DNA of 64,000 nucleotides. Source: Candidatus Bathyarchaeota archaeon. Lineage in GTDB: Archaea; Thermoproteota; Bathyarchaeia; 40CM-2-53-6. The DNA lies in assembly GCA_963726255.1 (NCBI GenBank), contig CAVSBL010000002.1:1088001-1152000 (forward strand). The letters run 5' to 3'. The stretch's first letter is position 1. The number at the start of each line of letters is the position of its first letter. The notes under the pieces were generated by a model. It was not told the origin of the DNA and ran no database searches. It was given only the letters and a program-made list of their open reading frames with translations. Both the position numbers and the translations under genes were made by a program. This document shows positions 5,423 to 39,883 of this stretch, piece by piece.

Positions 5423-5580
5423 CGGAGGGACTCATCACCCTCAGAGAGTGGCGGTTGGGTTACCGCTTTCTCTCTTCTTCGCATAATGTTACCGTGCAGG
5501 CATATTAGTGAATGTCGCGAATAAGTTTTGCTTCCAGAAACCTAACCTTGCGCATCCAGAAAGGAAAGTGGTGGGCCCGG
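5423..5580. repeat. ~150-bp direct repeat, copy 2, abutting the tRNA 3' end
   Basis: near-identical to 1887-2042. Confidence 0.9.
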
Positions 5581-5675
5581 AGGGATTCGAACCCTCGACC
5601 AGCAGGTTCCTCCGCTATGCATATGAGCTTCGACTTTCAGTGTCTGTCGCTCTAGCCTAGCTGAGCTACGGGCCC
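5569..5675 (-). tRNA. tRNA-Ile2(CAU) with two introns (30/31: 5629-5643; 37/38: 5608-5621)
   Basis: GGGCCCG/CGGGCCC-ACCA acceptor; removing two BHB-like introns gives a 78-nt cloverleaf with a CTCATAA loop. Confidence 0.85.
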
Positions 5676-5941
5676 TTATTCTTTTAGTGACTTTAGGGGA
5701 CATTTCAGGATTAGGGTTCGAGTTTGGCAAACGTCAGGCGCCGACTGAACGTGTAGCTTAGAGCATTCGAAGGGTTCTACAGCCCCCAAGAGCTTCGGCT
5801 GGCTCTACATTAGAGCCCTCGCTAACACGCCACTCTCAAAGCATGAGCTCGCAAGGATCGCTTCGCTCCTCCTCCGCCGCTAATAGCCACGGAATAACCA
5901 TAATACCAGATTCCTCACGAAAGAGGGCCAGTGATTAAGCA

Positions 5942-6316
5942 GTGGATACCGACAAATTCGTAGAGGAAGTCTTCAAGAAAGACGGTCGGATTCGCTACGT
6001 AGGAATCGTTGATAGGGAGTTTCACGTCCTTGTCTCAAAGATGAGGGAGGGAGTTCAGAGTCTCACTCCCGACGAGAGCGACCGTAACTTTGTTCAATTG
6101 ATGCCCTCGATCATTCTCGACTCGGTCGAAAAGCTCTCGCCCTTTCTGGGTGTTGTTGAGTCCGTGACTATCAGATACGCGAAGGTGTTTCTAGTACTCT
6201 TCACTAAGGGCAGTTACGTGATTGTACTAAGCTTCAACCCAGACATTCAGAGGCCATTCATGAGCGCTCTGACAGAGTGGATGCAATCGCTAGCTTCCAT
6301 GTACCTATCCGAATAG
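5942..6316 (+). CDS. roadblock/profilin-like hypothetical protein (DUF6659-like)
   Basis: IRYVGIVD...SKMREG pattern. Confidence 0.65.
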   Translation: MDTDKFVEEVFKKDGRIRYVGIVDREFHVLVSKMREGVQSLTPDESDRNFVQLMPSIILDSVEKLSPFLGVVESVTIRYAKVFLVLFTKGSYVIVLSFNPDIQRPFMSALTEWMQSLASMYLSE

Positions 6317-6404
6317 ACACGCCTGCAGTGCTGAACCGTCGTTTTAGTGTCTGGGCATAGTCGTGTGCACGAGCTAGCGTCGATTGAGTTCTGAACTCTT
6401 CATC

Positions 6405-7115
6405 TTACTTCCGTCTGACGGAACTCTTACGCCATTGGTCGCGAGGAATTCTATGCCTCTCTTTTCTACTATCGTTCCGTGGTCGAACGTGCTTTGGTTT
6501 CCTTTGAGCGTGTATTCGATGTGTGCGCAGGTCAAACGTATAGATAGAACCACCGGCCAATACTTGAAATGGCCTAGTCACGTGTTTGCAATGATCGAAT
6601 TGCATGCTACCTTTCTTGTGGAAATATTCGAACCATGGCGGGTGTACGAAGTCGGATACTAGGACGCCGTCGATTTTGTAACCGAAATTGTCCGGTTCGC
6701 ATGCGTCACAAATCTCGTACGGGTATAGAAGCCCCCTATTCGCTTCATGTTGAACGAACAGATTGCTGCTTGGGTTCGCCAGCATTTCCAGCAACTCGTG
6801 ACTCATAGTTACCGTCCATTCACAACCAGCCTGCTTATCGCTCCTCGCAAACACTTTCGCTAAAGGCAAGCCTTTGGCTGTTAGGTCATGATAGCCGAGA
6901 ACGCCCGCTTGGTGTGAATCATCGAAGATTCCAAGCCACCAAGAATCGTGGCTTGGCTTTGATTTCTTAGGTACGAAGACAAGTTTGGCATTTGCCCCCC
7001 ACGGGGGCGCAAAATCGCGTCGCACTTGGGTCTGAAGCGACGGCAGTACAGATTTGACGTCGCTGTCAGCAAGGGTCTTGCTCTCGTTTATAATTTCGAT
7101 TCTGACATGAGCCAT
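6405..7115 (-). CDS. hypothetical protein, putative metallopeptidase-like
   Basis: LGYH, SHELLEML, YEICDAC motifs. Confidence 0.65.
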   Translation of the reverse strand: MAHVRIEIINESKTLADSDVKSVLPSLQTQVRRDFAPPWGANAKLVFVPKKSKPSHDSWWLGIFDDSHQAGVLGYHDLTAKGLPLAKVFARSDKQAGCEWTVTMSHELLEMLANPSSNLFVQHEANRGLLYPYEICDACEPDNFGYKIDGVLVSDFVHPPWFEYFHKKGSMQFDHCKHVTRPFQVLAGGSIYTFDLRTHRIHAQRKPKHVRPRNDSRKERHRIPRDQWRKSSVRRK

Positions 7116-7254
7116 GTAGGTTCCTCTAGCCTGTTAGCGTCTATAAGACTTGTCAGATCGAGTGAATTCCAGCAATTTGCGTCGTGGCAGTCACCATCAT
7201 GAGACCCTTAGTGCTATATTCCAAGACACATCATGTGTTGCCTGCTGAATTTGT

Positions 7255-7542
7255 ATGTCGAAACCGGACGAAATCGGCTTTAATCCACTTGAGGAACTTG
7301 ATCGTAGCGAAGCACGCATCGTCGTTAGATTGGAGTTTAGGCGATTCCGTAAACCGGTAACAATCATTCAAGGACTGCCTAGCACACGATTGGCGGAAAT
7401 TGCTCGCGAGCTGAAACGGAGGTTCGGGGCAGGGGGAACCACTAAAGGTGGAGAGGTCCTACTCCAAGGAGATCATCGCGGGCACATCAAACAAGAACTC
7501 GTGGAATTGGGATTCCCGGCTGACCATATCGACATGATCTAA
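7255..7542 (+). CDS. sui1: translation initiation factor SUI1/aIF1 family
   Basis: KPVTIIQGL, LKRRFGAGGT, LQGDHR. Confidence 0.9.
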   Translation: MSKPDEIGFNPLEELDRSEARIVVRLEFRRFRKPVTIIQGLPSTRLAEIARELKRRFGAGGTTKGGEVLLQGDHRGHIKQELVELGFPADHIDMI

Positions 7543-7560
7543 AGGAAAGGGATGAGAGCG

Positions 7561-7710
7561 TGGTGCTCCGGGCGGGATTTTCAGCGATTGAACCATCGCA
7601 TTCGAACCCGCGTCGCTGACTCTCTCCGCAAACTCGAGAGGCCAGCATACTCTCGGCGACATACGCCTTGACCGGGCTATACTCGGTAGCTGAACCGCTT
7701 CTACCGGAGC
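7561..7710 (-). tRNA. tRNA-Glu(CUC) with four introns (10/11: 7682-7700; 20b/21: 7652-7668; 37/38: 7622-7634; 59/60: 7578-7600)
   Basis: removing four BHB/BHL-flanked inserts gives a fully paired 78-nt cloverleaf GCTCCGG...CCGGAGC-ACCA. Confidence 0.88.
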
Positions 7711-7752
7711 CCCAACTAACCCGGAGCAATTGGACTAACGCTGTCCCACGGT

Positions 7753-7760
7753 ATTTTAAC
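7753..7760 (-). promoter_or_regulatory. TATA-like box for the tRNA-Glu precursor
   Basis: TTAAAATA about 25 nt upstream of the first GCTCCGG copy. Confidence 0.5.
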
Positions 7761-7807
7761 CGTGTGCACAGAAAAGAAAAACAGAGGAAAGAAGATGGAA
7801 GTGCCGC

Positions 7808-9433
7808 TTAGTATTCCGGCTCCCCACCTCTCGGTGGTGGAGTTGGAGGCGGCTTAGCTGCGGCTATTACATCATCAACCCTAAGAATCATTGACGCGGC
7901 TTCGGCCGCGGACCGTATTGCTTGCTCCTTCACTCGAACTGGTTCTACGACGCCCTGCTTCCTCATGTCTTTGACTCCGCCTTTGAAGACATCGACGCCT
8001 TGCGACACACCTCCTTTCTTGCCATGCGCCGAGCGGAGGGCAACCATTATGTCAATGGGGTCAAGCCCCGCGTTCTCGGCTAGGGTCTTCGGAATCATTT
8101 CCAATGTGTCTGCGAAAGCTTCTATCGCAAGTGCCTCACGCCCGCCAACCTTACTGGCATAATCACTCAACCTCTTGGAAAGTTCGGCTTCAATTGCGCC
8201 TCCGCCCGTGACGATTTTTGGTTCTTGCACCAAATCGATGGTTACGGAGAGTGCGTCTTTGAGCGCTCGTTCAGCCTCATCGACTAAGCGCTCTAAGCCT
8301 GCACGGATAAGGACGCTAACTGACCGTGGGTCCTTGCAGCCTTCAATGAAGACCATCTTGTCGTCTCCAATCTTTCTTTCTTCAACAAGGTCTGCTTTTC
8401 CCAGGTCGCTGGCTTTCAGGTCGTCCAGGTTTGTGATGATTCTTCCGCCCGTTGCTCTTCCTAACTTTTCCATGTCTGATTTCTTGATTCTTCGTACGCC
8501 CAGTATTCCTTCCTTTGCGAGGTAGTGCTGTGTAGTGTCGTCAATTCCTTTCTGGCAAAGGACTACGTTTGCGCCCGAAGTTTTGATCTTGTCCACCATT
8601 TCCTTCATCATGCGAGTTTCCTCGTCAAGGAAGGCCTTCATCTGGGTCGGGTCCTCGATGCGTATTTCAGCGGATATCTCGGTCTTTTCAATTTCAAGGG
8701 CTGCATCTATAAGCGCAATCTTAGCGTTCTTAACCTGCTTTGGCATTCCTGGGTGAACAACTTCCTTGTCGACGATAATCCCCCTGACCAGTTGGGTGTC
8801 GAGGAGGCTTTTGCCTTCCTTCTTTACGAGCTGCACGTTGTCGATGTCGGCGTACCATGCATCGCCGCGCTTTTCCTTAACCAGTTGAATTGCCTCAATG
8901 GCGATGTCGGCGAAGTGTTCACGGGCACCACCTAAACCCTTGCTATGCATCGCCGTCATGGCAACTTTCTTGAGAGCAACTTTGTCCTCAAGTTTAATCG
9001 GTTCAGATAGGGAATCGAGAATCTGAATCGCTCTGTCCGCCGCCTTCTTGTAACCCGCAACAATGATCGTTGGGTGAACGTCGTCATCGAGCAAGTCTTG
9101 GGCTCGTTTCAGTAGCCCGCCCGCAAGGATTACCGCCGTCGTAGTCCCGTCGCCAACTTCATCATCCTGTGTCTTGGCAACCTCAACCATCATTTTCGCG
9201 GCTGGATTCTGAACATCAACTTCGTCAAGGACCGTGGCCCCGTCATTTGTTACAGTCACATCGCCGAGGCTGTCAACGAGCATCTTGTCCATTCCGCGTG
9301 GGCCCAATGTCGTTTTCACAACTTCAGAAACAATGATCGCCGCTGTAATGTTGCTCCGTTGAGCGTCGCGGCCTCTATTGCGGGTGGATCCTTCCTTTAG
9401 AATGAGTACACGTTGACCAGAGAGCTCGGACAT
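7808..9433 (-). CDS. ths: thermosome subunit (group II chaperonin)
   Basis: [16 protein letters not shown] motifs. Confidence 0.97.
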
Positions 9434-9680
9434 TTTTTTGTTACCTCAGGTGACTACTTTGCATAAAATCAGCCGGTAAATAAGCATTTTTCTATTCAAG
9501 ACTCAGTCGGTTCAAGAAGGTGATTGAACAAATACTCTCTAAATCGGACGCCCGCCTTCATCGATCCTTCGTACTAGCGAGAAATCTGGCGCGGACTATC
9601 TAGCGAACTTATTATAGCCGTCCCACCATTCGTCCACACGAAGATTTTAGAATTTTCGGGAACGTTCGAGGAAAGCACAT

Positions 9681-10382
9681 TTGCCCGTTAACCTCTTGGT
9701 GCGAACCAGCAAACTTCGGAATTGCACTCTCGTTACCGGATTTCATGGCGTAGGGGAAACGGGATACATTTCTGTCTCATATCTCGTTCATGCTCTGAAT
9801 GCAAAGAGAATAGGATTTGTTGATGTGGCCCACCCTCCCCCATTCATCGCAACATCCGAAGAAGGTCTAGTCACTCCTTTCGAGGTATACAGGGCTGGGA
9901 ACATCGTGCTGGTGAAGTTGGAGTTTTCTCCGCATAGGGCGGAGGAGGCAGAGTTCGCCAAGACTCTGGCGCGTTGGATTATGGAAAACAAATTCAAAGA
10001 CGCAGTCCTCATCGGAGGCCTAGACGGAGCCCTGAAATCGGGCAAGGACGGCGTGAGAATTGTTACAACTGGAGAGTACCCGGTAAGAGCGAAGAAGATG
10101 AAACACCCGAAACTTGAAGCAGGCCTCTTCGTCTACGGACCGTTGGCCGTCATGTTAGGGGAATTCGAAAAACTGAACTTTCCTGCAGTAGCGGTGCTGC
10201 CCTACGCCTCCGCTGAACACGCCGATCCTAAGGCCGCGGCCACGGCGATTAGGGCAGTGTCGAAAGCGTACGGGCTAAAGGTCGACGTCAGGGACTTGGA
10301 ATACGATGCCGAAGATATTGAAGAAGAAATAGATAAACGAATGCAGCAAACAGCCCGGTCACTGCGCGGGATGTACGGCTAA
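9681..10382 (+). CDS. PAC2 family proteasome assembly chaperone
   Basis: TGFHGVGETG, IGGLD, DPKAA. Confidence 0.85.
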   Translation: MPVNLLVRTSKLRNCTLVTGFHGVGETGYISVSYLVHALNAKRIGFVDVAHPPPFIATSEEGLVTPFEVYRAGNIVLVKLEFSPHRAEEAEFAKTLARWIMENKFKDAVLIGGLDGALKSGKDGVRIVTTGEYPVRAKKMKHPKLEAGLFVYGPLAVMLGEFEKLNFPAVAVLPYASAEHADPKAAATAIRAVSKAYGLKVDVRDLEYDAEDIEEEIDKRMQQTARSLRGMYG

Positions 10383-10452
10383 TGCAAAATTCATACGTTG
10401 GTGAAAAGTTACCAACCAGGTCAGATTCATGAAACAAATTAGCTGATTTCGA

Positions 10453-11709
10453 ATGCAATTGCGATTTCTAGGTGCCTGTCAAGAAGTAGGTAGGTCCGCG
10501 GTCGCGGTCAAAGGCGCCCGTAGCCAGATCCTGATGGATTACGGCGTTATGATAAACCACGAAGTGGGCTTCCCGGTGCACGTTTCACCGAAGGACCTAG
10601 ACGCAGTTGTCCTAACCCATGCTCATCTTGACCACAGTGGACTCATACCCCTCTTCTACGTCCACTCTAGGATACCAGTCTACGCGGTCGAACCAACCTT
10701 CAAACTTACCCGAGTGCTCGTGCGCAACATGATCAAACTCAGCGGTTACTTCCTACCTTATGAGTACATGGACCTAGAAACGATGATGAATCATACCGTT
10801 CCCGTCGAATACCATGCAAAATTCAAGGTTGGCGACTCTGAAATCTCGATGATCAACGCCGGCCACATACCCGGGAGCGCACAGATAATAGTTGAAAACG
10901 ATGGTAGGCGAGTGCTCTACACCGGGGACTTCAACCTAATTCCGACCCACCTTGTTCCCGGCGCTGATAGAGAATACAACAACTTAGACGCCATAGTGAT
11001 CGAAAGCACGTACGCTATGGGCGACCATCCAGATCGGGCTGAGTCAGAACGCAACTTCGTCCTTGCCTGCAAGGAGGTTGTGGAAGGAGGAGGGACCGTC
11101 CTTGTTCCAGCCTTTGGAGTAGGCCGGTCCCAGGAAATTATTTGCATGCTCGCCGACCACAACTTCAACCACAAAGTCTTCGTCGACGGCATGGCTTTGG
11201 ATGCGATTAGAATGTTAGAGCAGCATCCGGGCGCGTTGAAAGACGAACACCTTTTCCGAAGGGCCATGAGAGAAGCGGAACAAATCAAGAATTGGCATGA
11301 CAGAAGACGTGCAGCCCACACTGAGGGGGTGATAATATCGCCTGCGGGAATGCTGAAAGGGGGAGCATCTGTTTTCTACATGGAAAACATCGCGACTAGG
11401 CAAGAAAATGGTATCTTCCTCGTCAGCTACCAAGTTGAAGGCTCACCGGGCAGGATACTCCTAGACGAGGGCCGATTCATCTTGCACGGCAAGGCTAGGA
11501 CTGTGAATGCCCGAGTTGAAAAATTCGATTTCTCATCCCACGGCGGAAAAACTCAACTCGAAGAAACCTTGAGAGAACTTGACAAGAAAACTCGCGTGTT
11601 TGTCGTTCATGGAGAAGAGGGAAACTGTAAGCACCTGGCTGAATTTGCATCACAGGAACTAGGCCTACAAGCCTCAACACCCCGCCCAGGTGAAACATAC
11701 GACGTCTGA
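10453..11709 (+). CDS. beta-CASP/MBL-fold ribonuclease (aCPSF2-like)
   Basis: THAHLDH, AGHIPGS, FSSH, VHGE. Confidence 0.92.
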   Translation: MQLRFLGACQEVGRSAVAVKGARSQILMDYGVMINHEVGFPVHVSPKDLDAVVLTHAHLDHSGLIPLFYVHSRIPVYAVEPTFKLTRVLVRNMIKLSGYFLPYEYMDLETMMNHTVPVEYHAKFKVGDSEISMINAGHIPGSAQIIVENDGRRVLYTGDFNLIPTHLVPGADREYNNLDAIVIESTYAMGDHPDRAESERNFVLACKEVVEGGGTVLVPAFGVGRSQEIICMLADHNFNHKVFVDGMALDAIRMLEQHPGALKDEHLFRRAMREAEQIKNWHDRRRAAHTEGVIISPAGMLKGGASVFYMENIATRQENGIFLVSYQVEGSPGRILLDEGRFILHGKARTVNARVEKFDFSSHGGKTQLEETLRELDKKTRVFVVHGEEGNCKHLAEFASQELGLQASTPRPGETYDV

Positions 11710-12235
11710 AGTTCTCGGTGTAATTCAAGTCGGCCCAACGAATGATTATCCGCTTACCACGATTAGGGATCAACTCTCCGATAGGTTTCCGAACTTCGCG
11801 CTCGAAACTATGCGTCCGCTCCCCGAACCTTCGGAGGCCTACGATTCGTTTCGCGGCCAATACCACTCCACACGCCTCCTTGTGCTCTTGGAGGAACACC
11901 TGCGAACGCTGCGGGTGAACAGGTTACTAGGTGTGGCAGCCCTCGACTTGTACGTCCCGGGTATGAACTTCGTATTTGGCGAAGCCAGATGCCCAGGCCA
12001 AGTGGCAGTCATTTCCACAAGGCGCCTAAAACCCACCCCCAGGAACCAACGCTTGTTTCGGGAACGCGTGCTCAAGGAAGCTGTTCATGAAATTGGGCAC
12101 ACAATGGGGCTGAAGCATTGCCCTGACTCTGCGTGCGTGATGCATTTCTCTGAGCACATTGGCGATACGGATAAGAAGTGTGCAACGTTTTGCGTGGAAT
12201 GCCAGTCGAGTTTGAAGGGGCGGAAAGTTGAGTAA
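11690..12235 (+). CDS. amzA: archaemetzincin
   Basis: HEIGHTMGLKHC...CVMHFS...C..C. Confidence 0.92.
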   Translation: MKHTTSEVLGVIQVGPTNDYPLTTIRDQLSDRFPNFALETMRPLPEPSEAYDSFRGQYHSTRLLVLLEEHLRTLRVNRLLGVAALDLYVPGMNFVFGEARCPGQVAVISTRRLKPTPRNQRLFRERVLKEAVHEIGHTMGLKHCPDSACVMHFSEHIGDTDKKCATFCVECQSSLKGRKVE

Positions 12236-13079
12236 GAAATTCAAGGCCAAGCCGGCCCAGTTGATTCCTGAAATCTCCGCCATAGCCCTCGCAGGGCTGT
12301 TTACCTTTAGCCTTCAATCGTCCAACGCCCCCATTGTCCCCATTACCGTCTTCCCGGAAACAACGAGCGGGATCACACTGAACGCCGGCATCTTCGTGGT
12401 GTTGATGGCAGCGACTGGAACTATCATGTACCTCTTCATAAAATTCGGATTGAAGCGCCTCGTTAGGTACCTGATCAACCTAGCTCTCCTAGCGCTGCTA
12501 TTCTTTCTGTTCACTTGGTATGGGTCCCTGTACGAAACTTACTTGCCACCGTTCTTGAGCTCCACAAGCTTTGGTTGGCTCATCGTAAGCTTGCTGGGCG
12601 CGGTCCTGCTGGGGCTCTTGATCTACAAAGCTAAGGGGGCGCTGCATTTGGTTGGCATCGTCCTAATCGGCGGACTTACAGGAACATTCCTCGGCGTGTC
12701 CATACCAACATTAACAGCTGTCGCGCTCTTGCTGGCGCTCGCTGGCTACGACCTCTTCGCAGTCTACAAGGGCCCGATAGGGAAAATTGCTCAATCAACT
12801 GACCTAGAGGAGTTCACAGGGGCCGTATTCACGTACGGCGACTTAACCGTCGGGATGGGGGACATGGTGTTTTACTCTATGCTCGCTAGCAACTCAATGA
12901 TGAATTTCGGGCCTCTCCCATTCCTCGCCGCAGCAGTCGGTTTGCTTATTGGAGCTTACCTCGGGTTCAAGATGCTTGAAGGGCGAGATATGTTTCCAGG
13001 TTTGCCGTTCGCCATAATTCTTGGACTTGTCTTCATGTATGTGACTTCTCAGGTTTTAGTAATGCTAAAACCGGCCTAA
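12228..13079 (+). CDS. presenilin/SPP-like intramembrane aspartyl protease
   Basis: multi-TM; YD, GMGD, PGLP motifs. Confidence 0.88.
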   Translation: MSKKFKAKPAQLIPEISAIALAGLFTFSLQSSNAPIVPITVFPETTSGITLNAGIFVVLMAATGTIMYLFIKFGLKRLVRYLINLALLALLFFLFTWYGSLYETYLPPFLSSTSFGWLIVSLLGAVLLGLLIYKAKGALHLVGIVLIGGLTGTFLGVSIPTLTAVALLLALAGYDLFAVYKGPIGKIAQSTDLEEFTGAVFTYGDLTVGMGDMVFYSMLASNSMMNFGPLPFLAAAVGLLIGAYLGFKMLEGRDMFPGLPFAIILGLVFMYVTSQVLVMLKPA

Positions 13080-13103
13080 ACATGTGCCTTCCCAACAAGA
13101 AGC

Positions 13104-14429
13104 TTAACGCCTCAAAATCGCTACGAGGTACCAAACATTGAGAAAGGTGAACAGCGTTCCGGCCAGAAAATCCAAAGCATACCTGATTGGCCCAATAGAT
13201 TGAGACAAGGCCGATTCAATTTGCAGGAAGTTTGGATTAATCGGGGACAAGAATCGAATTAGGAAGTAGTTGTTGCTTACCAGGTAAATCAACGCGACGG
13301 CCATCATTAGGAGCAGCGTTTTTTTCCTCTTCGGGTTCCAAACCGCCACATCGATCGCAGACAGGGCGAACAGGTAGATTGCGTACTGCTCAGTTACGCG
13401 AGCTCTGAAGATCAAGAAGACCAGCGTAACAACAAGAAGCGATTGAACGAGGCCGTAATCTGTATCAAACCGGAATCTCTTGAACGCCACCAACGTAAAC
13501 CCTCCGACCAAAGGTATCCAAACGAACCCCAAGAGCCTGTAGAAGTCTGGTGCTGTCGAGGGCTGTAAGAAGCCCAAGTTACTGAGGTAGAAGAGCGAAT
13601 CCCAAACCGACATCGATTCTCCGCCACGTCCAGCAGCCGACAGCAAAGATGACCCAATCGAGGGAAGAGGCCAGCGCATCACCTGAAATACAATCGCCGA
13701 AAACAGAGCAACCAGCCCAATGGCCAAGGCCGACCAAACCAAATCGCGCTCCCGCTTCATAGCGATGGGAACAGCATAAATGATCGGAACCGACTTCGCA
13801 AAAATAGCCAGTCCTGTCCAAAGAGCACTTTTTGCGCGAGAAATGGACATTACCGAAATCATAACGAACGCCATCGCGATTGAATCGAACATTCCCCAGA
13901 TTCCTGAGATGATTATCATGAATGGCGACAAGAGCCAAAACATCAGAACCCAACATGAGCGGCGAGGCTGCTTGGCGGAAACGTAAGAATACAGTAAATA
14001 GGCTAGGCCCACATCGCCGGCAATCACGGGCTGTTTGAGCAAAAAGTAGTATGCAAACCTGTTGCCGAAGCCAATCAAAGAGTACGCAGCGTACATCAAG
14101 CCGGTTACCAACGGCCAAAAAGGGAGGTATGCGATTGTCGCCGTGTTTTGTTCTGAGAAAGTGCTGGAAAAACTGAGGCCTGGAACAGGTGGTAGAATTC
14201 CATAAGGGTCGCCGCCATGAGTGAATGCATAACCCAACCTCACCCAGAGCTCGAAATCTGAAGGATGCCCTGTCCAGAAGGAGAACACTTCCCGGATCAA
14301 TACTCCCAAGACGAGAATGAGTAGAACTTCTTTCTGTGAAGGAGATGGCACGTGTTTTCCTTGAGACATTAGCATTTCCTTCCTTGGCATTACTTTCCTG
14401 CGGAAAGCAATAAGCGACCCGAGTTTCAA
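13104..14429 (-). CDS. GT-C membrane glycosyltransferase (GT87-like)
   Basis: multi-TM; GHPSD, YLP, IWGMFDS. Confidence 0.75.
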   Translation of the reverse strand: MKLGSLIAFRRKVMPRKEMLMSQGKHVPSPSQKEVLLILVLGVLIREVFSFWTGHPSDFELWVRLGYAFTHGGDPYGILPPVPGLSFSSTFSEQNTATIAYLPFWPLVTGLMYAAYSLIGFGNRFAYYFLLKQPVIAGDVGLAYLLYSYVSAKQPRRSCWVLMFWLLSPFMIIISGIWGMFDSIAMAFVMISVMSISRAKSALWTGLAIFAKSVPIIYAVPIAMKRERDLVWSALAIGLVALFSAIVFQVMRWPLPSIGSSLLSAAGRGGESMSVWDSLFYLSNLGFLQPSTAPDFYRLLGFVWIPLVGGFTLVAFKRFRFDTDYGLVQSLLVVTLVFLIFRARVTEQYAIYLFALSAIDVAVWNPKRKKTLLLMMAVALIYLVSNNYFLIRFLSPINPNFLQIESALSQSIGPIRYALDFLAGTLFTFLNVWYLVAILRR

Positions 14430-14437
14430 AATCGGCC

Positions 14438-14731
14438 TTACTTTGCGAGCTTGATTTTCTTTGTGAATTTGATGTTTGAGAGAGTGCCCCAGTACTTGAC
14501 GATTCGGGGTATATCGTATCCGCAGACTTCAACTATGCCTGGGTATGGATCGGTGGTTGGCGCTGTTCTAATTCCTAGGAGCTTCGTGCAAGCGAAGAAG
14601 AAGTACGCTCTGCTTTTCGTGGTTACTGCAAATAGAATTCCGGTCTTCTCGATGAGCAGCTTGAACATGGTCTGCTCGTAGATTAGCTTCCTCATGTTCT
14701 GTCGCTCGGTCATCTCTTGAGTCGAAGCCAA
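14438..14731 (-). CDS. hypothetical protein
   Basis: fills the gap in the operon, overlapping the upstream GT2. Confidence 0.55.
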   Translation of the reverse strand: MASTQEMTERQNMRKLIYEQTMFKLLIEKTGILFAVTTKSRAYFFFACTKLLGIRTAPTTDPYPGIVEVCGYDIPRIVKYWGTLSNIKFTKKIKLAK

Positions 14732-17735: not shown

Positions 17736-17765
17736 CGTCCAGATCCGCCCACCTTTACGATAAGG

Positions 17766-28561: not shown

Positions 28562-28623
28562 TCATGCAAGATAATCATAATATCAACGAACATATGGCAA
28601 GAAGAATTCGGTTGAAGAGATAG

Positions 28624-30404: not shown

Positions 30405-30422
30405 ATCCAGCGTTGATGGGTC

Positions 30423-31196: not shown

Positions 31197-31200
31197 ACCA

Positions 31201-31983: not shown

Positions 31984-32265
31984 AAAGACGAAGGCCGGCC
32001 CAGGCAACCACCACATATAGCCTGCCAGGCGACTCCCCTAAGCTACAAGTTTGGTAGGTCTCGTACCACCCTTACCTTGAATTTGTCTCGTTTGCCGAGA
32101 ATTCGAAAAGCAGCCCTATGCCAAATTTGACACGCCCCAATCCATACAAATCATCATGAAAGTGTAACCAAGCCTTATCTTCGCACCTCCTGAGCAGCCG
32201 ATAGCCCACGAGAGTTGCTAATGTGACAAAACCCGCGAATCACTCGCGGCGAGCATGAATTACCA

Positions 32266-35200
32266 TTGGTGTACATTAAGAGAATTGACCTGAGAGGCTT
32301 CAAGACCTTCGGGAAGAAGGCGACTGTTCACCTCGACCGCGGCCTCACGATCATAACCGGGCCGAACGGGTCCGGCAAATCGAACATCCTTGACTCGGTA
32401 AAGTTCGCGTTGGGAGAATTAAGCGCCAAAGAACTTAGGGGAGAGACAATAGGCGATCTGATTCACAAGGGAGTGATGGCGGCTACATCCCGCTCGGCCT
32501 GGGTCGCAGTACAATTTGACAACCAAGATAGACGAATACCCGTGGATGCCGAAGCGGTCACGATCTCACGAGAATTCCGGCGAGGCGGCGAGGGCATTTA
32601 CAGGCTTAACGGAAGAAAGGTCTCCCGAAAGCAGCTTACGGACATTCTCTCCTCAGCAGACATCCAAGTCTCCAGCTATAACATCGTCCCACAACACGCG
32701 ATTACACGCCTTGCTGAAGTAACAACCGAAGAGCGCCGGACGATAATTGAGGACATGATCGGAATCGCCGTCTACGATACTAAGAAAGCCTCGGCCCAAG
32801 TTGAACTCCAAAAGGCTGACGTGAACCTGCAAGTAGCATCAGCAAAGATTGAGGAAGTCAGACTCCGAGTCGAATCGCTGGAAAGGGAACGCAACGACTA
32901 CCTCAAGTACAAGCAGATTCAGAATGAAATTAACGGACTTCAAGCCAAAGCAATCTCCCACAAGATCAAGAAAACTCAACAAGAAAACAGCGAATTAGAA
33001 CAAGACCTCACCAAACATCAGCAGCAACTCCAAGAATTGAAAGCTGGCAAAGACCAGGTTATTCAGGAAAAGACGAAGCTTGAGTCTGAAAAAAGGGAAT
33101 ACGAAGAAACCGTAGCGGACAAAGGCAGCAGCAGGCTACTTGAAGTACAACGCAAAATGGGCGACGTCAACGCAACCATTGCAGGCCTACAGGCCCGGGC
33201 AAATGCCGCACAATCGAACATCAAATCCCTCCAAGATCAGAAAAGCGAACTGGAAAAGAACTCGACCGAAATACTCCAGAAAGTTAACAACTCAAAGAAT
33301 GAACTTTCGGAACTTAGAGCATCCCACGCCGCGCTCCTCCAGGCCATTGAAGCAAAACAAACTAAAGTTGGCGAATCATTCAAAGCACTCACCGATCTAA
33401 GAGACAAACTAGGCGCCCGCAACAAAGAGGCCGAAGACCTAGAACACACCATAGGCAGCCTAACGAGTAGAGTTGCTAGATTCACCTCGCAGGTCAAGGC
33501 GAGCGCCACAAAAATCGATTTGTTGAACAATCATTTGAAAACACTGCGAACACGCAAACAAGAATATGAGAACGCCCTTCAAAACGCCGCCAAGCATGTT
33601 GACGAACTGCTATCAGCAAAGGTCCAGGAGGGGAAAAGCTCAGCTGAGGCCGACAAGAAGATTTCTGGATACGTGAAGATTAAGCAACAACTTGCCCAAG
33701 ATGCGGAAAAGGCCAACGAGGTTGCAAAACGTTCTGCTCTAGAACTCACCGAGATAGAAACACAGAAGAACGTAACAGAGAACTTAGCCTCGGACGACAA
33801 AGCGCTCTCCCTGATCGAACAAATGGCTGAGGCGGGCGCCGTATCGGGTGTTTATGGGCGGCTAGCTGACCTTGTCAAGGTGAAAGACGGTTATGGGAAG
33901 GCTGCCCAAGCCGCAGCGGCGGGTTGGATGAAAGCCCTCGTTGTGAGGAACATTGAGGCGGCACTCTCATGCATCGAAGTTCTAAAGAAAACGAAAGTGG
34001 GACGCGTCAAACTTATTCCTCTCGAAGGCCTCACGCCGCCAAAGAAGGTCTACGTTCCCAAAGGAATTCAGGAAATCATCGGGCCAATCACAGACAGTCT
34101 TGAATTTGCAGAACGCGTTAGGCCAGCAGTGAACTATGTTTTCGGAGACACCCTGCTGACTTCGAATCAGAAATCAGCTTTCCTCGCGTCCCTGAAAGGC
34201 GTTCGAGCAGTCGCAGTCTCAGGCGATTTATACGAGCCGGGAGGCGCGATGGAAACAGGATACTTCAGGCAACCACTTGACGTCTCAAAACTGCTCCTGA
34301 AGGGCAAGACAATCGATCACCTAAGGACCACGCTTTCGTCCCTCGAGAAGTTGGCGGTGAAGGCCAAAGAGGAAATTGCCAGGATAGACCAGGAAATTCT
34401 TGACCAGCGCAACAGCAAAGTAAAGAGTCAAAACCTGATTCGGTCAATAGAGAGAGAAATCGCCACGCTCAAGGGAAACCTTGAACGAGCCCATAAGATT
34501 ATTGAGGATACCTCGGAACGAATCGAACAGATAACGCACGAAGTCGGTACGGAGCAAACGGTGCTCGAGGCCAGCGTATCGCAGAAGGAGAAGATACAAC
34601 CCAAACTGGCTGAGTTTGAGCAGACCCACAGCTCTCTAAAGATCCGTTCACAATCCGCCGTCCTCCTCGAGCGCGAGAACGAACACTCAACACTCACGAG
34701 TGAACTTACTGACCTCGTCCGACAGAAGATTGAAGCTGAAAGTCGAATTGAGTCGTTGAAATCTACTGTAACTGCGATAGAGCCGACTGCGGAACAAACG
34801 AAAATTCAGTCTACTAGCATTGACAGGCAACTGGAGAAACTGGCGTCAGAACTGCCATTGACCCAAACTGAACTTTCGAAGAACGAAGAGCAACTGAAGC
34901 AGCTTGCAGCAGCCAGGGACCAACTTACGCAGGAACTTGCTGGAGTCAGAGTCAAACGAGACGAGTACAATTCGCGCCTTCGTGAAATGGACGCGGAAAT
35001 AAACGAACTCTTCGGCAAACTTGACCCACTAAACAATAAGGTCGCTAACCTAACCGCCTCGCTCAAGCACACGCAGATGCAAACCGACTTTCACATGAAC
35101 GAACTGAAGGAACTGGGGTACCCAGAGGCAGTGGAAGTCAGTGACGATGAAATCCAAAAGCTAGAGACCACGCTTCCAGTGCTCAAGAAAGAGCTCGCTG

Positions 35201-35817
35201 GGATAGGGGGCGTCAACGAACTCGCTGCTTCCCAGTACGAGGAAGTTAAAGAAAATTACAAGCACCTAGCCACTAGAATTTACGACCTTGAGAAAGAGAA
35301 AATGTCGATAGTCCAATTCATGAACGAACTGGACCAACAGAAGCTTGAAGCTTTCATGAAAGCATTCAACCAAGTCAGTGAATCCTTCAGCCAAATTTTC
35401 TCAACAGTCACGAGCGGGGCTGGAAGGCTCTTTCTTGAGAAGCCTGAAAACCCGTTCGACGGAGGCGCTGACATTAGGTTACAGTTTCCTGGAAAGACTG
35501 AAATGTCGATTGGAAGCGCTAGCGGTGGCGAGAAATCAGTCGGAACTGTCTGTTTCATACTTTCCCTCCAAGCAATTCATCCGATGCCATTTTACATGAT
35601 GGATGAAATCGACGCCCACCTAGATGTGGTTAATTCACAGCGACTGGCGGAATTGCTAAAATCGAAGTCGAAGGGCTCTCAATTCATCGTCGTTTCGCTG
35701 AAGGACGTGACTATCGCTCGAGCTGATACGGTTTATGGCGTCTTCATTCAGGAAGGCGTCTCCCAAGTAGTTGGCCTGCCAATGCAGGAGGTAAGGACGG
35801 TTGGAAGAACTCAGTAA
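32266..35817 (+). CDS. smc: chromosome segregation protein SMC
   Basis: GPNGSGKS, hinge, SGGEKS, DEIDAHLD. Confidence 0.97.
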   Translation: MVYIKRIDLRGFKTFGKKATVHLDRGLTIITGPNGSGKSNILDSVKFALGELSAKELRGETIGDLIHKGVMAATSRSAWVAVQFDNQDRRIPVDAEAVTISREFRRGGEGIYRLNGRKVSRKQLTDILSSADIQVSSYNIVPQHAITRLAEVTTEERRTIIEDMIGIAVYDTKKASAQVELQKADVNLQVASAKIEEVRLRVESLERERNDYLKYKQIQNEINGLQAKAISHKIKKTQQENSELEQDLTKHQQQLQELKAGKDQVIQEKTKLESEKREYEETVADKGSSRLLEVQRKMGDVNATIAGLQARANAAQSNIKSLQDQKSELEKNSTEILQKVNNSKNELSELRASHAALLQAIEAKQTKVGESFKALTDLRDKLGARNKEAEDLEHTIGSLTSRVARFTSQVKASATKIDLLNNHLKTLRTRKQEYENALQNAAKHVDELLSAKVQEGKSSAEADKKISGYVKIKQQLAQDAEKANEVAKRSALELTEIETQKNVTENLASDDKALSLIEQMAEAGAVSGVYGRLADLVKVKDGYGKAAQAAAAGWMKALVVRNIEAALSCIEVLKKTKVGRVKLIPLEGLTPPKKVYVPKGIQEIIGPITDSLEFAERVRPAVNYVFGDTLLTSNQKSAFLASLKGVRAVAVSGDLYEPGGAMETGYFRQPLDVSKLLLKGKTIDHLRTTLSSLEKLAVKAKEEIARIDQEILDQRNSKVKSQNLIRSIEREIATLKGNLERAHKIIEDTSERIEQITHEVGTEQTVLEASVSQKEKIQPKLAEFEQTHSSLKIRSQSAVLLERENEHSTLTSELTDLVRQKIEAESRIESLKSTVTAIEPTAEQTKIQSTSIDRQLEKLASELPLTQTELSKNEEQLKQLAAARDQLTQELAGVRVKRDEYNSRLREMDAEINELFGKLDPLNNKVANLTASLKHTQMQTDFHMNELKELGYPEAVEVSDDEIQKLETTLPVLKKELAGIGGVNELAASQYEEVKENYKHLATRIYDLEKEKMSIVQFMNELDQQKLEAFMKAFNQVSESFSQIFSTVTSGAGRLFLEKPENPFDGGADIRLQFPGKTEMSIGSASGGEKSVGTVCFILSLQAIHPMPFYMMDEIDAHLDVVNSQRLAELLKSKSKGSQFIVVSLKDVTIARADTVYGVFIQEGVSQVVGLPMQEVRTVGRTQ

Positions 35818-36472
35818 GCCCTTTTGGATGAGGCCCCCTTACCTTATCCTATTCGACCTGTTGAGGCTTCACCGGGTGAAGCCTTGGGACGTCGACATAA
35901 GCAACCTACTGAATGCTTTCCTTGCCGAGATGAAGAAGAGCGGCTACATCGACTTTTCCGCCTCGGGCACGGCCTTGCTTTCATCCTCAGTCGTTCACCG
36001 CATGAAATCCGAACTTGTCCTGAAAATGGAAGAGCCTCCGAAACCCCCGGTTGCTAGACCTGACGTGGAGGTCCCACCACCCCTACCATTTCCTATTCGG
36101 TTTGAGTACACCTCAACATCAGTCGCTGAAATCCTCCGTACACTCCAACAGGTTTTGGAAAACGAGAAGACTGTCCTCGCGAAGAAGCCATTCGTGCTAA
36201 GCCCACCGTCGGTTTTCGAGCAATTAGATGCATTTCTCGCGAACATACAAGAGAACATCGAGAATTTTTATGCCGAACTCATCAAACTCAGCATTAGGGG
36301 ATTACCTCTCTCCTTCAAAGACCTCGTCAAGGGCCAAACGTTTCTCGAGGCGGTTCGAATTTTCATAATGTTACTCTTCCTAGCCAACGACAAGAAGATT
36401 CTGCTAACACAAGACGACCTAGGTTCCGACCTATTCGTCCGTTTAGGTGAGGTGTCGCCACCAATTGCTTGA
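35801..36472 (+). CDS. scpA: kleisin ScpA
   Basis: PWDVDI motif; position after smc. Confidence 0.88.
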   Translation: MEELSKPFWMRPPYLILFDLLRLHRVKPWDVDISNLLNAFLAEMKKSGYIDFSASGTALLSSSVVHRMKSELVLKMEEPPKPPVARPDVEVPPPLPFPIRFEYTSTSVAEILRTLQQVLENEKTVLAKKPFVLSPPSVFEQLDAFLANIQENIENFYAELIKLSIRGLPLSFKDLVKGQTFLEAVRIFIMLLFLANDKKILLTQDDLGSDLFVRLGEVSPPIA

Positions 36473-37088
36473 ACCGCCCAATGAAACCAATGAACCCACA
36501 CTAATTGTCCCCAAAGCAAAAACAAAGCTTGCCTTGATAGAGGCCGCCCTCTACGTTACTGGCAAGCCCTTAGACCTTAAGACACTTGGGTCAGTGGTGG
36601 GGTTTCGGTCGGAAGAGAAGACCAGGGACCTCGCTCGTACTCTGAAGGACAAATACGGAAAAGACGGAAGTTCACTTGAAGTGTTGGAGCTCAGCGACGG
36701 TAGGTTCGTGATGCAATTGAAGCCGCAGTACGTGCGGCATGTTAAGCGGCTGGCGACACGGCAACTGCTCACACCTGGGCCGATGAAGACACTTTCCTTT
36801 ATTGCAGTCAGGCAGCCCGTAACCCAGTCTTACCTTGCGAAAGTTAGAGGGAACCTAGCGTACTCACACGTCAAACAGCTTCGGGAAATGGGGCTCTTAG
36901 CAGAGGAGAAGTTGGGACGGACGAAAATGCTTCGAACAACTCCAAACTTCGCTGATTACTTCAACCTTAGTCATGACATGGCTGCCATGAAGAAGCAGCT
37001 GGAAAAACTGTTTGAAAACATCAAAATAGAAAGATCCCAACAAAAACCCGGTCCGAAAGTCGAAAAAGAGAAAGTTCTAAGTCCTTAG
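36447..37088 (+). CDS. scpB: segregation and condensation protein ScpB
   Basis: IEAALY, QPVTQ, TTPNFADYF. Confidence 0.92.
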   Translation: MRCRHQLLEPPNETNEPTLIVPKAKTKLALIEAALYVTGKPLDLKTLGSVVGFRSEEKTRDLARTLKDKYGKDGSSLEVLELSDGRFVMQLKPQYVRHVKRLATRQLLTPGPMKTLSFIAVRQPVTQSYLAKVRGNLAYSHVKQLREMGLLAEEKLGRTKMLRTTPNFADYFNLSHDMAAMKKQLEKLFENIKIERSQQKPGPKVEKEKVLSP

Positions 37089-37131
37089 GGAAATAAGAGA
37101 GCATTGCGATACGAGTCTTGAGGCGCAGCGA

Positions 37132-37296
37132 ATGGTTATGGTTGAATTTAACAAGCTGAAGGAGACCGTCGACATCTTCATACCTAGAACCACGGAGGGT
37201 GCTTCGATTACTTTGACGATGACCGTCGACAAGGCGAAGCAACTTTACCAACTCCTCCAAAAAGTTTTGAAAGAAAACGATCAACTACCCGCCTAG
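37132..37296 (+). CDS. small hypothetical protein (54 aa, not in ORF track)
   Basis: MVMVEFNKLKETVDIFIP...; fills the gap between scpB and rps8e. Confidence 0.4.
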   Translation: MVMVEFNKLKETVDIFIPRTTEGASITLTMTVDKAKQLYQLLQKVLKENDQLPA

Positions 37297-37375
37297 TCGG
37301 ACGGAAACATAACAACGCTTAAAAGAACCGCCCCTTGCCTCTCAGTGAAATTCAACTTAGGAGCTGGAATACAGT

Positions 37376-37771
37376 ATGCCCCAATGGCACGGAGACCTTC
37401 ACAAACGCAAGAAAACAGGCGGCAAGAAACACATGTTCCGCGGCAAGCGTGCTTTTGAAATGGGAAGCGACCCCGCGCAGACCATTGTGGGAGAAAAGAG
37501 AATATCGAAGAAACGAGGCCGCGGCGGGAAACCAAAGTTCGCTGCCTTGGCAGTTAACACTGTCAACGTCACCGACCCTTCAACGGGGAAAAGTCAAAAG
37601 ACAGAGATTAGAAGCGTCGTGAAGAACCCTGCCAACGTCGATTACCAACGCCGGGGAGTAATTACCAAAGGTGCCGTTGTCGAGACGCCCTTGGGACAGG
37701 CGATTGTGACCTCGAGACCAGGCCAGCACGGCGTCGTGAACGCCGTTCTCCTTCAAGGCACACAGCAGTAA
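37376..37771 (+). CDS. rps8e: 30S ribosomal protein S8e
   Basis: RKKTGG, NPAN, ITKGA, TSRPGQ.G.VNA. Confidence 0.96.
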   Translation: MPQWHGDLHKRKKTGGKKHMFRGKRAFEMGSDPAQTIVGEKRISKKRGRGGKPKFAALAVNTVNVTDPSTGKSQKTEIRSVVKNPANVDYQRRGVITKGAVVETPLGQAIVTSRPGQHGVVNAVLLQGTQQ

Positions 37772-37816
37772 TCCCACGCCTTCGTCCGTTCCCGCATTGC
37801 CTAGGCGAAGCTCTCC

Positions 37817-38128
37817 TTGAAACTTCAAGGGAAAATGGTTGTCTGGCCAGCCAACCTCGATTCTTCAAAATCTCGGAAAGGAGGAAGAAAACTACCTAAG
37901 GCTTCAGCGATTCAAGCTCCTAGGCTCGAGGAAATTAACGACGCTGCCGAACGCCTCTCCTTCGAAGCTGAAATAGTTCTCGCAAAATCGCTGCCCAGCT
38001 CATGGTGGGAGAAAGGTGGGTACGCCATACTCGCAAAGAAGGGCCCGAAGGGGAACCTGCTCCGATCCCTCGCAAGCGAGATTAAGAAGGCCAGGGCCGC
38101 GAAAACCGGGCAGGAAAAGAGAACCTGA
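37817..38128 (+). CDS. srp19: signal recognition particle protein SRP19
   Basis: VWPANLDS.KSR..GRKLP. Confidence 0.9.
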   Translation: MKLQGKMVVWPANLDSSKSRKGGRKLPKASAIQAPRLEEINDAAERLSFEAEIVLAKSLPSSWWEKGGYAILAKKGPKGNLLRSLASEIKKARAAKTGQEKRT

Positions 38129-38134
38129 GGGCGC

Positions 38135-39400
38135 TCAGGGCGGGAGCCCCCCGATCAGCGTCACATCTACGTTTTGCCCTCCCTCAATAGCTATAATCCC
38201 TTCATTGAGAGTGACGATTCCGTTCGCCCTAACCATGCTCATCAGAACTGAAGAACGTTGTAGTTTGAGCGGCTCGGCAACTAACCCCCGCCCATCACGC
38301 TTTACCATGACCCTCACAAAGGTCCTGTTACCGGGCGCCCCCGTGATTCTTTCACTCAAGAGCGCACTGACAGTTGGTTCGAACAATTCCTGAACGCCCA
38401 ACATCTTCGCGAGGACAGGACGTACGAAGGTTCGGAATGCGAAGAATGCGGAGACTGGAAACCCAGGCAGTGAAAATACGGCTTTGCCGTTCACCACTGC
38501 CAAGCCTGTTGGCATGGCAGGCCTCATGGCAACCCCATGTACCAACATACCCGGCTTGCCTAAGGTGTTGACACACTCAGGGACGAGATCCCTTTTGCCG
38601 ACCGAAGACCCTGCGCTTACAATGAGCGCATCGCATGTCTTCAATCCACTCCTCATAGCGTTCTTAATGCTGGATTCCAGATCCTTGACAATTCCCAGGT
38701 CAACGGCTCTCGCCCCCAATTCCTGAAGCATACCGGATATGATTGCCCTGTTGATGTCGATAACTTTGCCCGGGCTACGGCTACTGATCGAATCTACGAG
38801 CTCGTTACCAGTTGATATGACAGCTACGCGTGGCTCCCTAGCAACATACACTCTCGACAATGCTAGTACCTTCGATATGCCAATATCCTGCGGCCGGAGG
38901 CGCATCCCCTTCTTGAGCACAACCGTATGTGGTGTAACGTCCTCACCCTTCATCGCGATGCTCTGGCCGGGCGTAGTCGGGACGTGGACTGCGATTCTGC
39001 CTGCCGGAAGCTTGGTCGTTCGCTCAATCATCACGACGGCGTCTGCACCGGGGGGAATCACGCTCCCGGTTGCGACAGCAACGCTCTCTCCCGGCTCAAC
39101 CTGCAGTCTGGGTAAGGCGCCTATCCTGCTTTCCCCAACCACCCGAAGGATTGCGGGTTTGTCTTGAGAAGCATTCTTCACGTCTTCAACGCGGACAGCG
39201 TATCCGTCCATCACCGAGCGATCAACTGGTGGCAGGTACTGATTTGCAACGACGTCTTTTCCAAGGTATCGTCCCAAGGCCCGCTGAACAGCGACGGATT
39301 CGAGCTTGACAGTCGGCTCTCCGAGGGCAGCGAAAAGCATCTCAAGCGCGTCGTCAACCCTAGTTAGTTTTTGGAAACCTTCGGTGTGCAAATGACTCAT
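38135..39400 (-). CDS. moeA: molybdopterin molybdenumtransferase
   Basis: SVMDGYA, STGNEL, LPGFP. Confidence 0.93.
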   Translation of the reverse strand: MSHLHTEGFQKLTRVDDALEMLFAALGEPTVKLESVAVQRALGRYLGKDVVANQYLPPVDRSVMDGYAVRVEDVKNASQDKPAILRVVGESRIGALPRLQVEPGESVAVATGSVIPPGADAVVMIERTTKLPAGRIAVHVPTTPGQSIAMKGEDVTPHTVVLKKGMRLRPQDIGISKVLALSRVYVAREPRVAVISTGNELVDSISSRSPGKVIDINRAIISGMLQELGARAVDLGIVKDLESSIKNAMRSGLKTCDALIVSAGSSVGKRDLVPECVNTLGKPGMLVHGVAMRPAMPTGLAVVNGKAVFSLPGFPVSAFFAFRTFVRPVLAKMLGVQELFEPTVSALLSERITGAPGNRTFVRVMVKRDGRGLVAEPLKLQRSSVLMSMVRANGIVTLNEGIIAIEGGQNVDVTLIGGLPP

Positions 39401-39472
39401 GGGATTAACACTAATCCGACGGGAAGATATTATGCGCGGCAGATATCTAACACACTCTGCCGGTGGCCGCCC

Positions 39473-39748
39473 ATGGCCGATTCGCTGACCACGACGATTA
39501 CAATCCTTGGGGCGCTCGTCGTACTAATTGGGCTAATCTTCTGGATCCGAAGAGTTCGACAAAAAGGAGACGGCGGGCCTTTCATCGAACTTGAGAAATT
39601 GGTCAAGTGCAGGTCCTGCGGTTCTCTGATACCGGAAGGTGTCCGCAAATGCGCTTTTTGTGGCGTCTGGCAACGCCAAGAGGATTCCGGAGAACAAATA
39701 AATGGCCCAAAGAGCAATGGCACGAACGCCGCCGAAATGGCACACTAG
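39473..39748 (+). CDS. membrane-anchored zinc-ribbon protein
   Basis: N-terminal TM; CRSCG...CAFCG; stop overlaps tRNA G1. Confidence 0.7.
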   Translation: MADSLTTTITILGALVVLIGLIFWIRRVRQKGDGGPFIELEKLVKCRSCGSLIPEGVRKCAFCGVWQRQEDSGEQINGPKSNGTNAAEMAH

Positions 39749-39883
39749 CCGCCGTATGCGCATTCGCGTAGACGACAGCTCAGTGGTGGAGCAGCGGACC
39801 CTTCTCAGTAAGGGGCTGAAGCTGTTAAGCGGGCAGACACAGCTACCCGTTGGTCGCAGGTTCGAGCCCTGCCGGCGGCGCCA
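39748..39883 (+). tRNA. tRNA-Asn(GUU) with three introns (8/9: 39756-39776; 30/31: 39798-39820; 37/38: 39828-39844)
   Basis: removing three BHB-flanked inserts gives a fully paired 75-nt cloverleaf GCCGCCG...CGGCGGC-GCCA. Confidence 0.9.

Follow-up and report, generated by a model that had tools for sequence, protein, structure and literature searches.

How a tRNA gene interrupted by several introns, some of them only a few positions apart, could still yield a mature tRNA is the question raised by a stretch of DNA from an archaeon of the class Bathyarchaeia (assembly GCA_963726255.1, contig CAVSBL010000002.1, positions 1,088,001 to 1,152,000 of the forward strand). This stretch of 64,000 nt, referred to here as the window, carries three tRNA genes, all with an encoded CCA end and holding nine introns in total; the 80 thermosome loci closest to that of the host come almost entirely from soil, peat and sediment Bathyarchaeia assemblies. 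We conclude, with a probability of roughly 0.85, that these are three functional Bathyarchaeia tRNA genes, each with two to four introns that are spliced by proteins at bulge-helix-bulge (BHB) motifs. What we infer beyond the structure of the genes is the splicing itself, its order and the role of a short copied sequence in the leader of two of them. It should be noted that the count of three refers to the genes caught by the seeds used, and a further, more disrupted tRNA gene may have escaped.

A BHB motif consists of two 3-nt bulges around a helix of 4 base pairs (bp), with the cuts falling after the second bulge base, a geometry that agrees with what an earlier, sequence-only reading of this DNA had stated about C32-U33. 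The genes were rebuilt with a solver that strips up to four candidate introns, admits only BHB-like cut pairs and scores the cloverleaf that is left over. The gene with anticodon CAT (5569..5675, minus strand; 48 bits against the Rfam tRNA model) has a 15-nt intron at 30/31 (5629..5643), of the hBH type without an inner helix, with 4/4 central pairs and a 3-bp outer helix that includes C32-U33-C34, and a 14-nt intron at 37/38 (5608..5621), whose central helix forms 3/4 pairs with positions 32-35. Its spliced form is a canonical cloverleaf according to ARAGORN. Although the anticodon is formally that of Met, the gene is identical to tRNA-Ile(GAT) at 64/78 positions, compared with 56/78 and 50/78 for the other two CAT genes of the genome, and is probably tRNA-Ile2; the label 'Ile' given to it previously is therefore a deduction.

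The tRNA-Glu(CTC) gene (7561..7710, minus strand), read by ARAGORN as tRNA-Glu(ctc) once spliced, is interrupted four times. Its introns are a 19-nt HBh' type at 10/11 (7682..7700; central helix 4/4 with positions 5-8, inner helix of 3 bp), a 17-nt intron in the D-loop at 20b/21 (7652..7668; 4/4 with 17a-20, inner helix of 3 bp), a 13-nt intron at 37/38 (7622..7634; 4/4 with 32-35, the anticodon stem serving as outer helix) and a 23-nt intron in the T-loop at 59/60 (7578..7600), a full hBHBh' motif with 4/4 central pairs to 54-57, the T stem (5 bp) as outer helix and an inner helix of 5 bp. The tRNA-Asn(GTT) gene (39748..39883, plus strand; solver score 57), which is read as tRNA-Asn(gtt) after splicing, carries introns of 21 nt at 8/9 (39756..39776; central helix 3/4 with 3-6, outer helix of 1-2 with 10-11, inner helix of 5 bp), 23 nt at 30/31 (39798..39820; a full hBHBh' motif, 4/4 with 25-28, outer helix including C32-U33, inner helix of 5 bp) and 17 nt at 37/38 (39828..39844; 4/4 with 32-35). 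All nine introns of the sequence-only reading, at 8/9, 10/11, 20b/21, 30/31 (twice), 37/38 (three times) and 59/60, were recovered at these positions.

The genes are largely invisible to the general tools applied, as had been anticipated. ARAGORN at its default settings reported no tRNA in the window (0/3 genes), and the Rfam tRNA model placed one of the three above threshold (5572-5675, minus strand); the Asn gene reached 23.6 bits, below threshold, and the Glu gene was not found by this model at E<=10. After removal of the introns in silico, a canonical tRNA was called by ARAGORN in 3/3 spliced products, as against 0/3 unspliced genes. Two other routes were tried and set aside. Allowing introns in ARAGORN yielded 35 'genes', of which many had introns hundreds of nucleotides long, up to 2,802 nt, and the CAT gene was misread as Gln. 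The BHB motif alone is useless as a finder unless a cloverleaf test accompanies it: 5 kb of one strand contain 231 instances of its strict form, and its relaxed form appears about once per base.

Within the solved genes the geometry is consistent: all nine sites have 3-nt bulges, at least 3/4 central pairs (4/4 in seven) and at least one flanking helix, outer and/or inner. On the BHB scale used here they score 7-10; of the 8,505 cut pairs possible within these three genes, 1.06% do as well. When the gene interiors were shuffled, the best cloverleaf scored 53 in one of 30 trials and at most 47, or could not be solved, in the other 29; the real genes score 54-57.

Since the solver admits only BHB-like cuts, comparison with orthologues is the stronger test, and it confirmed the predicted junction independently of the motif for seven of the nine introns, through orthologues without the intron at the exact site. 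The tRNA-Glu gene lies just downstream of the thermosome gene, where it is present in 34 of the 80 closest thermosome loci. Among 31 consistently solved orthologues, the number of introns is 0 in 3, 1 in 2, 2 in 5, 3 in 10 and 4 in 11 (L035 and L063 were mis-solved and L074 unsolved, with three inserts each by eye). Each of the four introns is missing from some syntenic orthologue exactly at the predicted junction. Three orthologues (L045, L048 and L051) are intronless; the 10/11 intron is missing at its exact junction in 20, that at 20b/21 in the intronless three as well as L050, L052, L053, L060 and L073, and that at 37/38 in the same three as well as L046, L059 and L060. On a thermosome tree of 32 rows (midpoint root only; L024, L060 and L074 left out), the intron-poor Glu genes form one clade, a clade of 9 rows has three introns and a clade of 12 rows has four, with two secondary losses. 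As read from these orthologues, the predicted Glu introns accumulate from 0 to 4 along the tree, with later losses. Two of the loci, L027 and L043, are contigs of one assembly labelled Acidiferrales bacterium; they carry a Bathyarchaeia thermosome gene (88% and 83% identical), L027 together with a syntenic three-intron tRNA-Glu, and were probably mis-binned under an acidobacterial bin.

A similar picture emerges for the other two genes. Twelve CAT orthologues were solved: seven have the same two introns, three have a third, one (L154) is without the 37/38 intron and one (L160) is intronless, so that the 30/31 intron occurs in 11/12. The L160 gene is 75 nt long and matches the predicted mature form and its junctions. 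For Asn, 4/18 solved orthologues (L121, L124, L127 and L128), and by eye also L117-L119, are without the 37/38 intron exactly at its junction; those at 8/9 and 30/31 are present in all 18, which come from several families. The Asn(GTT) and CAT genes, 34 kb apart in the host genome, are separated by a few hundred bases and occupy opposite strands in several further families of the order (L123/L149, L127/L160, L128/L155 and others).

Across orthologues the exons are almost invariant, whereas the introns vary in length and sequence and keep their helices, the inner ones through compensatory changes. For instance, the inner pairs of Glu 59/60 are kept in 71/72 cases over 24 distinct orthologous introns, with exchanges such as GC/TA, CG/GC and GC/AT/CG, compared with 26/72 when the partner is slid by one. 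The corresponding values are 38/39 against 3/39 for Glu 10/11 (13 distinct introns) and 50/54 against 6/54 for Asn 8/9 (18 distinct introns). Likewise, 54/54 inner pairs are kept over 18 orthologous introns at Asn 30/31 (two register classes summed), and the central helix of Glu 20b/21 has at least 3 pairs in all 21 distinct orthologous introns.

Could some of the three genes nevertheless be unspliced pseudogenes, or some of the inserts be something other than introns, such as a Glu gene with three introns and an enlarged loop? The solver offers several solutions for Glu (150 candidates) and Asn (70), and three soil metatranscriptome runs with small shares, in which parts of the stretch appear at about 95-98% identity, showed no exon-exon joint and no spliced RNA in the parts compared, among them the Glu and CAT genes. 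The only RNA contig on a tRNA body (run X3) is a relative's whole Glu gene, corresponding to window positions 7565-7714, unspliced and at low depth; it may represent a precursor or carried-over DNA, and the seven substitutions and one insertion listed for it all fall inside the four Glu introns. The CAT gene is represented in these runs by generic 33-nt T-arm matches only. Other observations that count against three functional, intron-bearing genes are that every orthologue examined has the Asn introns at 8/9 and 30/31, that the CAT 30/31 intron and all three 37/38 introns have a weak inner helix or none and rely on the exon-side helix, and that BHB quality is partly circular at solver-derived sites, where the cuts were preselected as BHB-like, a circularity that orthologue-defined junctions escape. 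Against pseudogenes stand the synteny of the same genes in many species, the contrast between exons and introns, and the individual absence of each Glu insert in some orthologue. The best Glu solution with three introns scores 50, as opposed to 56 for four; the Asn gene has no second match anywhere in the genome, and the anticodon CTC occurs once among the 34 tRNA genes rebuilt from it. We therefore regard pseudogenes or inserts of another kind as highly improbable, and retain functional genes with spliced introns as our conclusion.

The enzymes that such splicing would need are encoded in the host genome. Two EndA genes give PF01974 matches of 80.9 and 53.3 bits, in open reading frames of 188 and 187 amino acids. 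The longer protein matches the catalytic repeat of two-repeat enzymes and the shorter one the N-terminal, structural repeat; this paralogue is gapped at the position of the M. jannaschii 'EH' residues, where we take the catalytic His to be located. The ligase RtcB is also present (571 bits). The alignment of the 188-residue protein with the catalytic alpha subunit from Aeropyrum pernix (3P1Z chain B, E 7.7e-41) covers its entire length and is ungapped in the crenarchaeal specificity loop, where K41 and K43 stand opposite K44, a conserved lysine near the catalytic pocket, and R46. K44 of A. pernix was shown to give EndA broad specificity (accessible text of PMC3241643). Classified in this way, the two paralogous subunit genes, one catalytic and one structural, are by alignment an alpha/beta EndA pair with the crenarchaeal specificity loop, the classification that the sequence-only reading had proposed as a check. 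In the mechanism proposed here, this enzyme would cut at the two 3-nt bulges of each BHB after transcription, and RtcB would join the exons.

Whether all motifs of a gene could be presented to such an enzyme at the same time differs between the genes. In Glu, the four motifs have no base in common, and all could form at once. In the other two genes, C32-U33 had been assigned both to the outer helix of the 30/31 motif and to the central helix of the 37/38 motif, which is correct for CAT and for Asn; the full set of shared bases is 28, 32, 33 and 34 in CAT and 25-28, 32 and 33 in Asn. Because the two motifs have bases in common, they cannot both be fully formed on one molecule. Moreover, the outer helix of the 37/38 motif, which has 1 bp in the unspliced transcript, grows to 4 bp (CAT) or 7 bp (Asn) after removal of the 30/31 intron. 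The predicted pairings support the view that, in CAT and Asn, full motifs for both the 30/31 and the 37/38 intron cannot be available to the enzyme simultaneously: competing for positions 25-28 and 32-34, the two would have to be presented in turn, with the transcript refolding before the second. Stepwise removal of closely spaced archaeal tRNA introns has already been described (accessible text of PMC8450103). As for the sequential splicing with refolding proposed earlier, its premise of mutually exclusive full motifs holds.

A different possibility is that no fixed sequence with refolding exists, and that a broad-specificity enzyme cuts relaxed half-motifs at the 30/31 and 37/38 sites of CAT and Asn in either order. 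The host EndA shares the specificity loop to which the A. pernix enzyme owes its ability to cut relaxed motifs, the unspliced 37/38 sites keep their central helix and one outer pair, and, as read from the pair lists, removing either intron first leaves the other motif intact. This is countered by the fact that C32-U33 cannot sit in two helices at once, so that two full motifs cannot coexist, and by the outer helix of the 37/38 site, which is canonical only once the 30/31 intron has gone; the same need for stepwise removal is found in the literature (PMC8450103, accessible text). Cutting in either order is unlikely on this evidence, but deserves attention, and stepwise presentation with refolding is the course that we favour.

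A second folding problem arises at the 8/9 intron of Asn and the 10/11 intron of Glu, each the first in its gene, whose BHB would be built from the 5' strand of the acceptor stem. Both genes have a copy of this strand in the leader: GCTCCGG at 7721..7727 (minus strand), 17 nt upstream of position 1 of Glu, and GCCGCCG at 39728..39734 (plus strand), 20 nt upstream of position 1 of Asn. Among the Glu orthologues, a 7/7 copy is found in 13/13 genes with the 10/11 intron and in 1/20 without it; the exception, L027, sits inside the four-intron clade. For Asn, the 7/7 copy stands 12-30 nt upstream in 19/19 solved genes from several families (the host gene included), within leaders that are otherwise unalignable. 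A single variant of the copy was encountered (L076, C to T), and it keeps its pairing with the acceptor 3' strand. Of the 34 genes rebuilt from the genome, only Asn and Glu were seen to have a copy matching at 7/7 positions, joined by Cys if its other start is taken. The genes with the copy are those whose first BHB uses the acceptor 5' strand. By eye, an A/T-rich box (TTTAA/TTAAA type) lies about 28-38 nt upstream of most of the 34 genes, within the 45 nt inspected, and the nearest such box of Glu and Asn about 45-60 nt upstream; at this distance the leader copy would fall inside the transcript.

Predicted folds are consistent with a role for the copy. With a leader of 21-24 nt, the minimum-energy folds of Glu and Asn pair the copy with the acceptor 3' strand, and that of Glu also holds the 10/11 BHB. 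Enforcing the real acceptor stem gives folds less stable by 6.0 kcal/mol (Glu) and 7.9 kcal/mol (Asn). The copy may thus act as a decoy that frees the acceptor 5' strand for splicing: in the primary transcript it would pair with the acceptor 3' strand and thereby protect the weak BHB from competition by the strong real acceptor stem, and RNase P would remove the leader later. Three points count against this proposal. Two Leu genes parsed with an 8/9 intron have leaders matching at only 5/7 and 6/7 positions; enforcing the exact 8/9 BHB of Asn costs 6.7 kcal/mol relative to the minimum-energy fold; and copy and intron in Glu may owe their association to one gain within a single clade, in which case the 13 and 20 genes are not independent.

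This last point bears on another account, in which the copy has no folding role and is the footprint of the first intron's arrival, for example a duplication upon insertion, or a neutral relic. The appearance of the Glu copy together with the 10/11 intron in one clade would fit such an origin, and L027 demonstrates that the copy can persist without its proposed partner. Against a footprint stands the Asn copy, where the invariance of 7 nt across families in an unalignable leader, at a spacing that varies from 12 to 30 nt, argues for selection; the pairing retained by the L076 variant and the use of the copy in the predicted folds speak in the same direction. We consider an absence of folding function rather doubtful. 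Our tentative proposal, to which we attach somewhat less than an even chance as a whole, is that the copy is a dedicated cis-acting folding device, one that occupies the acceptor 3' strand and thereby leaves the 5' strand free to form the 8/9 or 10/11 BHB, that it was gained with such introns, kept by selection (as in the 19/19 Asn genes) and left as a relic after intron loss (L027), and that the tRNA genes of this family represent a third independent runaway gain of introns, with every step from 0 to 4 in one gene visible in living relatives.

How far the three genes represent their genome was addressed by a census seeded with the T arm plus CCA, with a score of 53 as acceptance line. This line was set after a first solver pass, limited to two introns and to 328 of the 717 seeds, had produced many false solutions scoring 25-51. 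The census rebuilt 34 tRNA genes with 74 introns, or 2.2 per gene, and all 34 spliced forms pass ARAGORN. The genome-wide BHB-aware search suggested by the sequence-only reading thus left only one gene of 34 without an intron (one intron in 6, two in 15, three in 10 and four in 2), and its expectation of an expansion comparable to or greater than that of the Thermoproteales is upheld. The commonest positions are 37/38 (18), 30/31 (9), 29/30 (6), 45/46 (6) and 59/60 (5), the last occurring in four genes of this genome besides Glu(CTC). These figures are a lower bound, with about a dozen expected anticodons missing and several clearly real genes left unsolved (C2:297602-297717, 276827-276706, which is Ser-like, 2206499-2206620 and 267000-266775). 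Some parses scoring 53-54 are probably wrong in detail, the parse of a Glu(TTC)-like gene at 1298224-1298095 as TCT is doubtful, and the Cys gene scores 52 with three introns and 56 with four.

The Rfam tRNA matches in this genome are followed by CCA in 16/17 cases, and 15/17 are 90-126 nt long. The only match without CCA, a 73-nt Asp(GTC)-like sequence outside the window (G000:C2:1442027-1442099, minus strand), has acceptor strands that pair improperly; it may be either a pseudogene or a gene whose 3' part is disrupted in a way that went undetected. Inside the window, at positions 1141-1226 (minus strand), the 3' ends of two tRNAs, each consisting of a T arm and an acceptor 3' strand and one of them ending in CC, occur as fragments 59 nt apart, directly after an open reading frame that ends near 1250 and was judged by eye to encode an integrase; C2:1087971-1088000, just before the window, was noted together with them. 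One of them resembles the 3' end of the Pro(GGG) gene, and the pair look like attachment-site remnants of an integrated element.

The introns were also compared with one another. At 80% identity or more, no pair of introns from different genes was found among the 74 (nor after shuffling), and at 70% identity 12/74 are similar to an intron of another gene, compared with 2 when shuffled. The 45/46 introns of Gly(CCC) and Pro(TGG) (G000:C2:500947-500773 and 162989-162891) are 75% identical over 23-24 nt, which is the clearest hint in this genome that introns might have an origin in common.

These results extend a very high intron load, averaging about 2.2 per gene and reaching four in a single gene, to mesophilic Bathyarchaeia of soil and peat, beyond the Thermoproteales of hot springs for which the phenomenon was defined. 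They also indicate that general tRNA finders leave most tRNA genes of the order unannotated, with 10-30 Rfam matches per genome in 41 genomes (the host included), and completeness and codon-usage inferences are consequently distorted for a very abundant group. No paper on tRNA introns in Bathyarchaeota or Bathyarchaeia came up in literature searches that combined the two topics. An intron-rich gene layout as such is already known, and the most interesting parts are the leader copy and the stepwise Glu series. The latter, in which syntenic orthologues carry 0, 1, 2, 3 or 4 introns, preserves a natural record of how introns were gained and lost, and could help in dating the gains and in searching for the route by which introns arrive. 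If the former is functional, it would offer a new solution to the problem of forming a weak splicing motif against a strong acceptor stem.

Several known systems can be set beside these genes, as far as the accessible parts of the cited sources go. For the leader copy, the nearest likeness is found in the split and permuted tRNAs of Nanoarchaeum equitans and Cyanidioschyzon merolae, in which sequence outside the mature tRNA also builds a helix for the splicing enzyme (PMC4090602). There, however, leader and trailer form the BHB itself, whereas the copy described here is proposed to hold the acceptor 3' strand; no acceptor-holding leader device turned up in the accessible literature on leader and trailer helices.

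For the introns themselves, the classical comparison is with the Thermoproteales, exemplified by Pyrobaculum calidifontis, which share short BHB introns at canonical and many non-canonical positions with several per gene (PMC8450103, PMC4033280), some introns so close that one must leave before the next motif can form, and, in common with the host, an alpha/beta EndA with the crenarchaeal specificity loop. The accessible text of these sources, which comprise reviews and the description of tRNAscan-SE 2.0, a program that looks for BHB introns iteratively, gives three introns per tRNA gene as the archaeal maximum, with a record of 71 introns in 46 genes in P. calidifontis. The genome studied here, which belongs to a different class and to soil and peat rather than hot springs, goes beyond that maximum with a four-intron gene. 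Intron density is likewise higher, at 2.2 per rebuilt gene compared with 1.54 in P. calidifontis (bioRxiv 10.64898/2026.10.13.758758) and a mean of 0.84 in Thermoproteales, and intron families shared across genes, the mark of transposition in Thermoproteales, are missing here (0/74 at 80% identity). The statement of the sequence-only reading that a heavy load is known mainly from Thermoproteales is out of date, since heavily interrupted tRNA genes have also been published for Thaumarchaeota (PMC8450103) and for Asgard archaea. Some Asgard families, although members of another phylum and described in a preprint of October 2026 whose accessible text makes no mention of Bathyarchaeia, offer a close parallel (bioRxiv 10.64898/2026.10.13.758758): their tRNA genes average about 2.2 intervening sequences, with a maximum of five, many of which lie in the D-arm; standard tools miss them, gains were repeated along the tree, and almost no intron families are shared.

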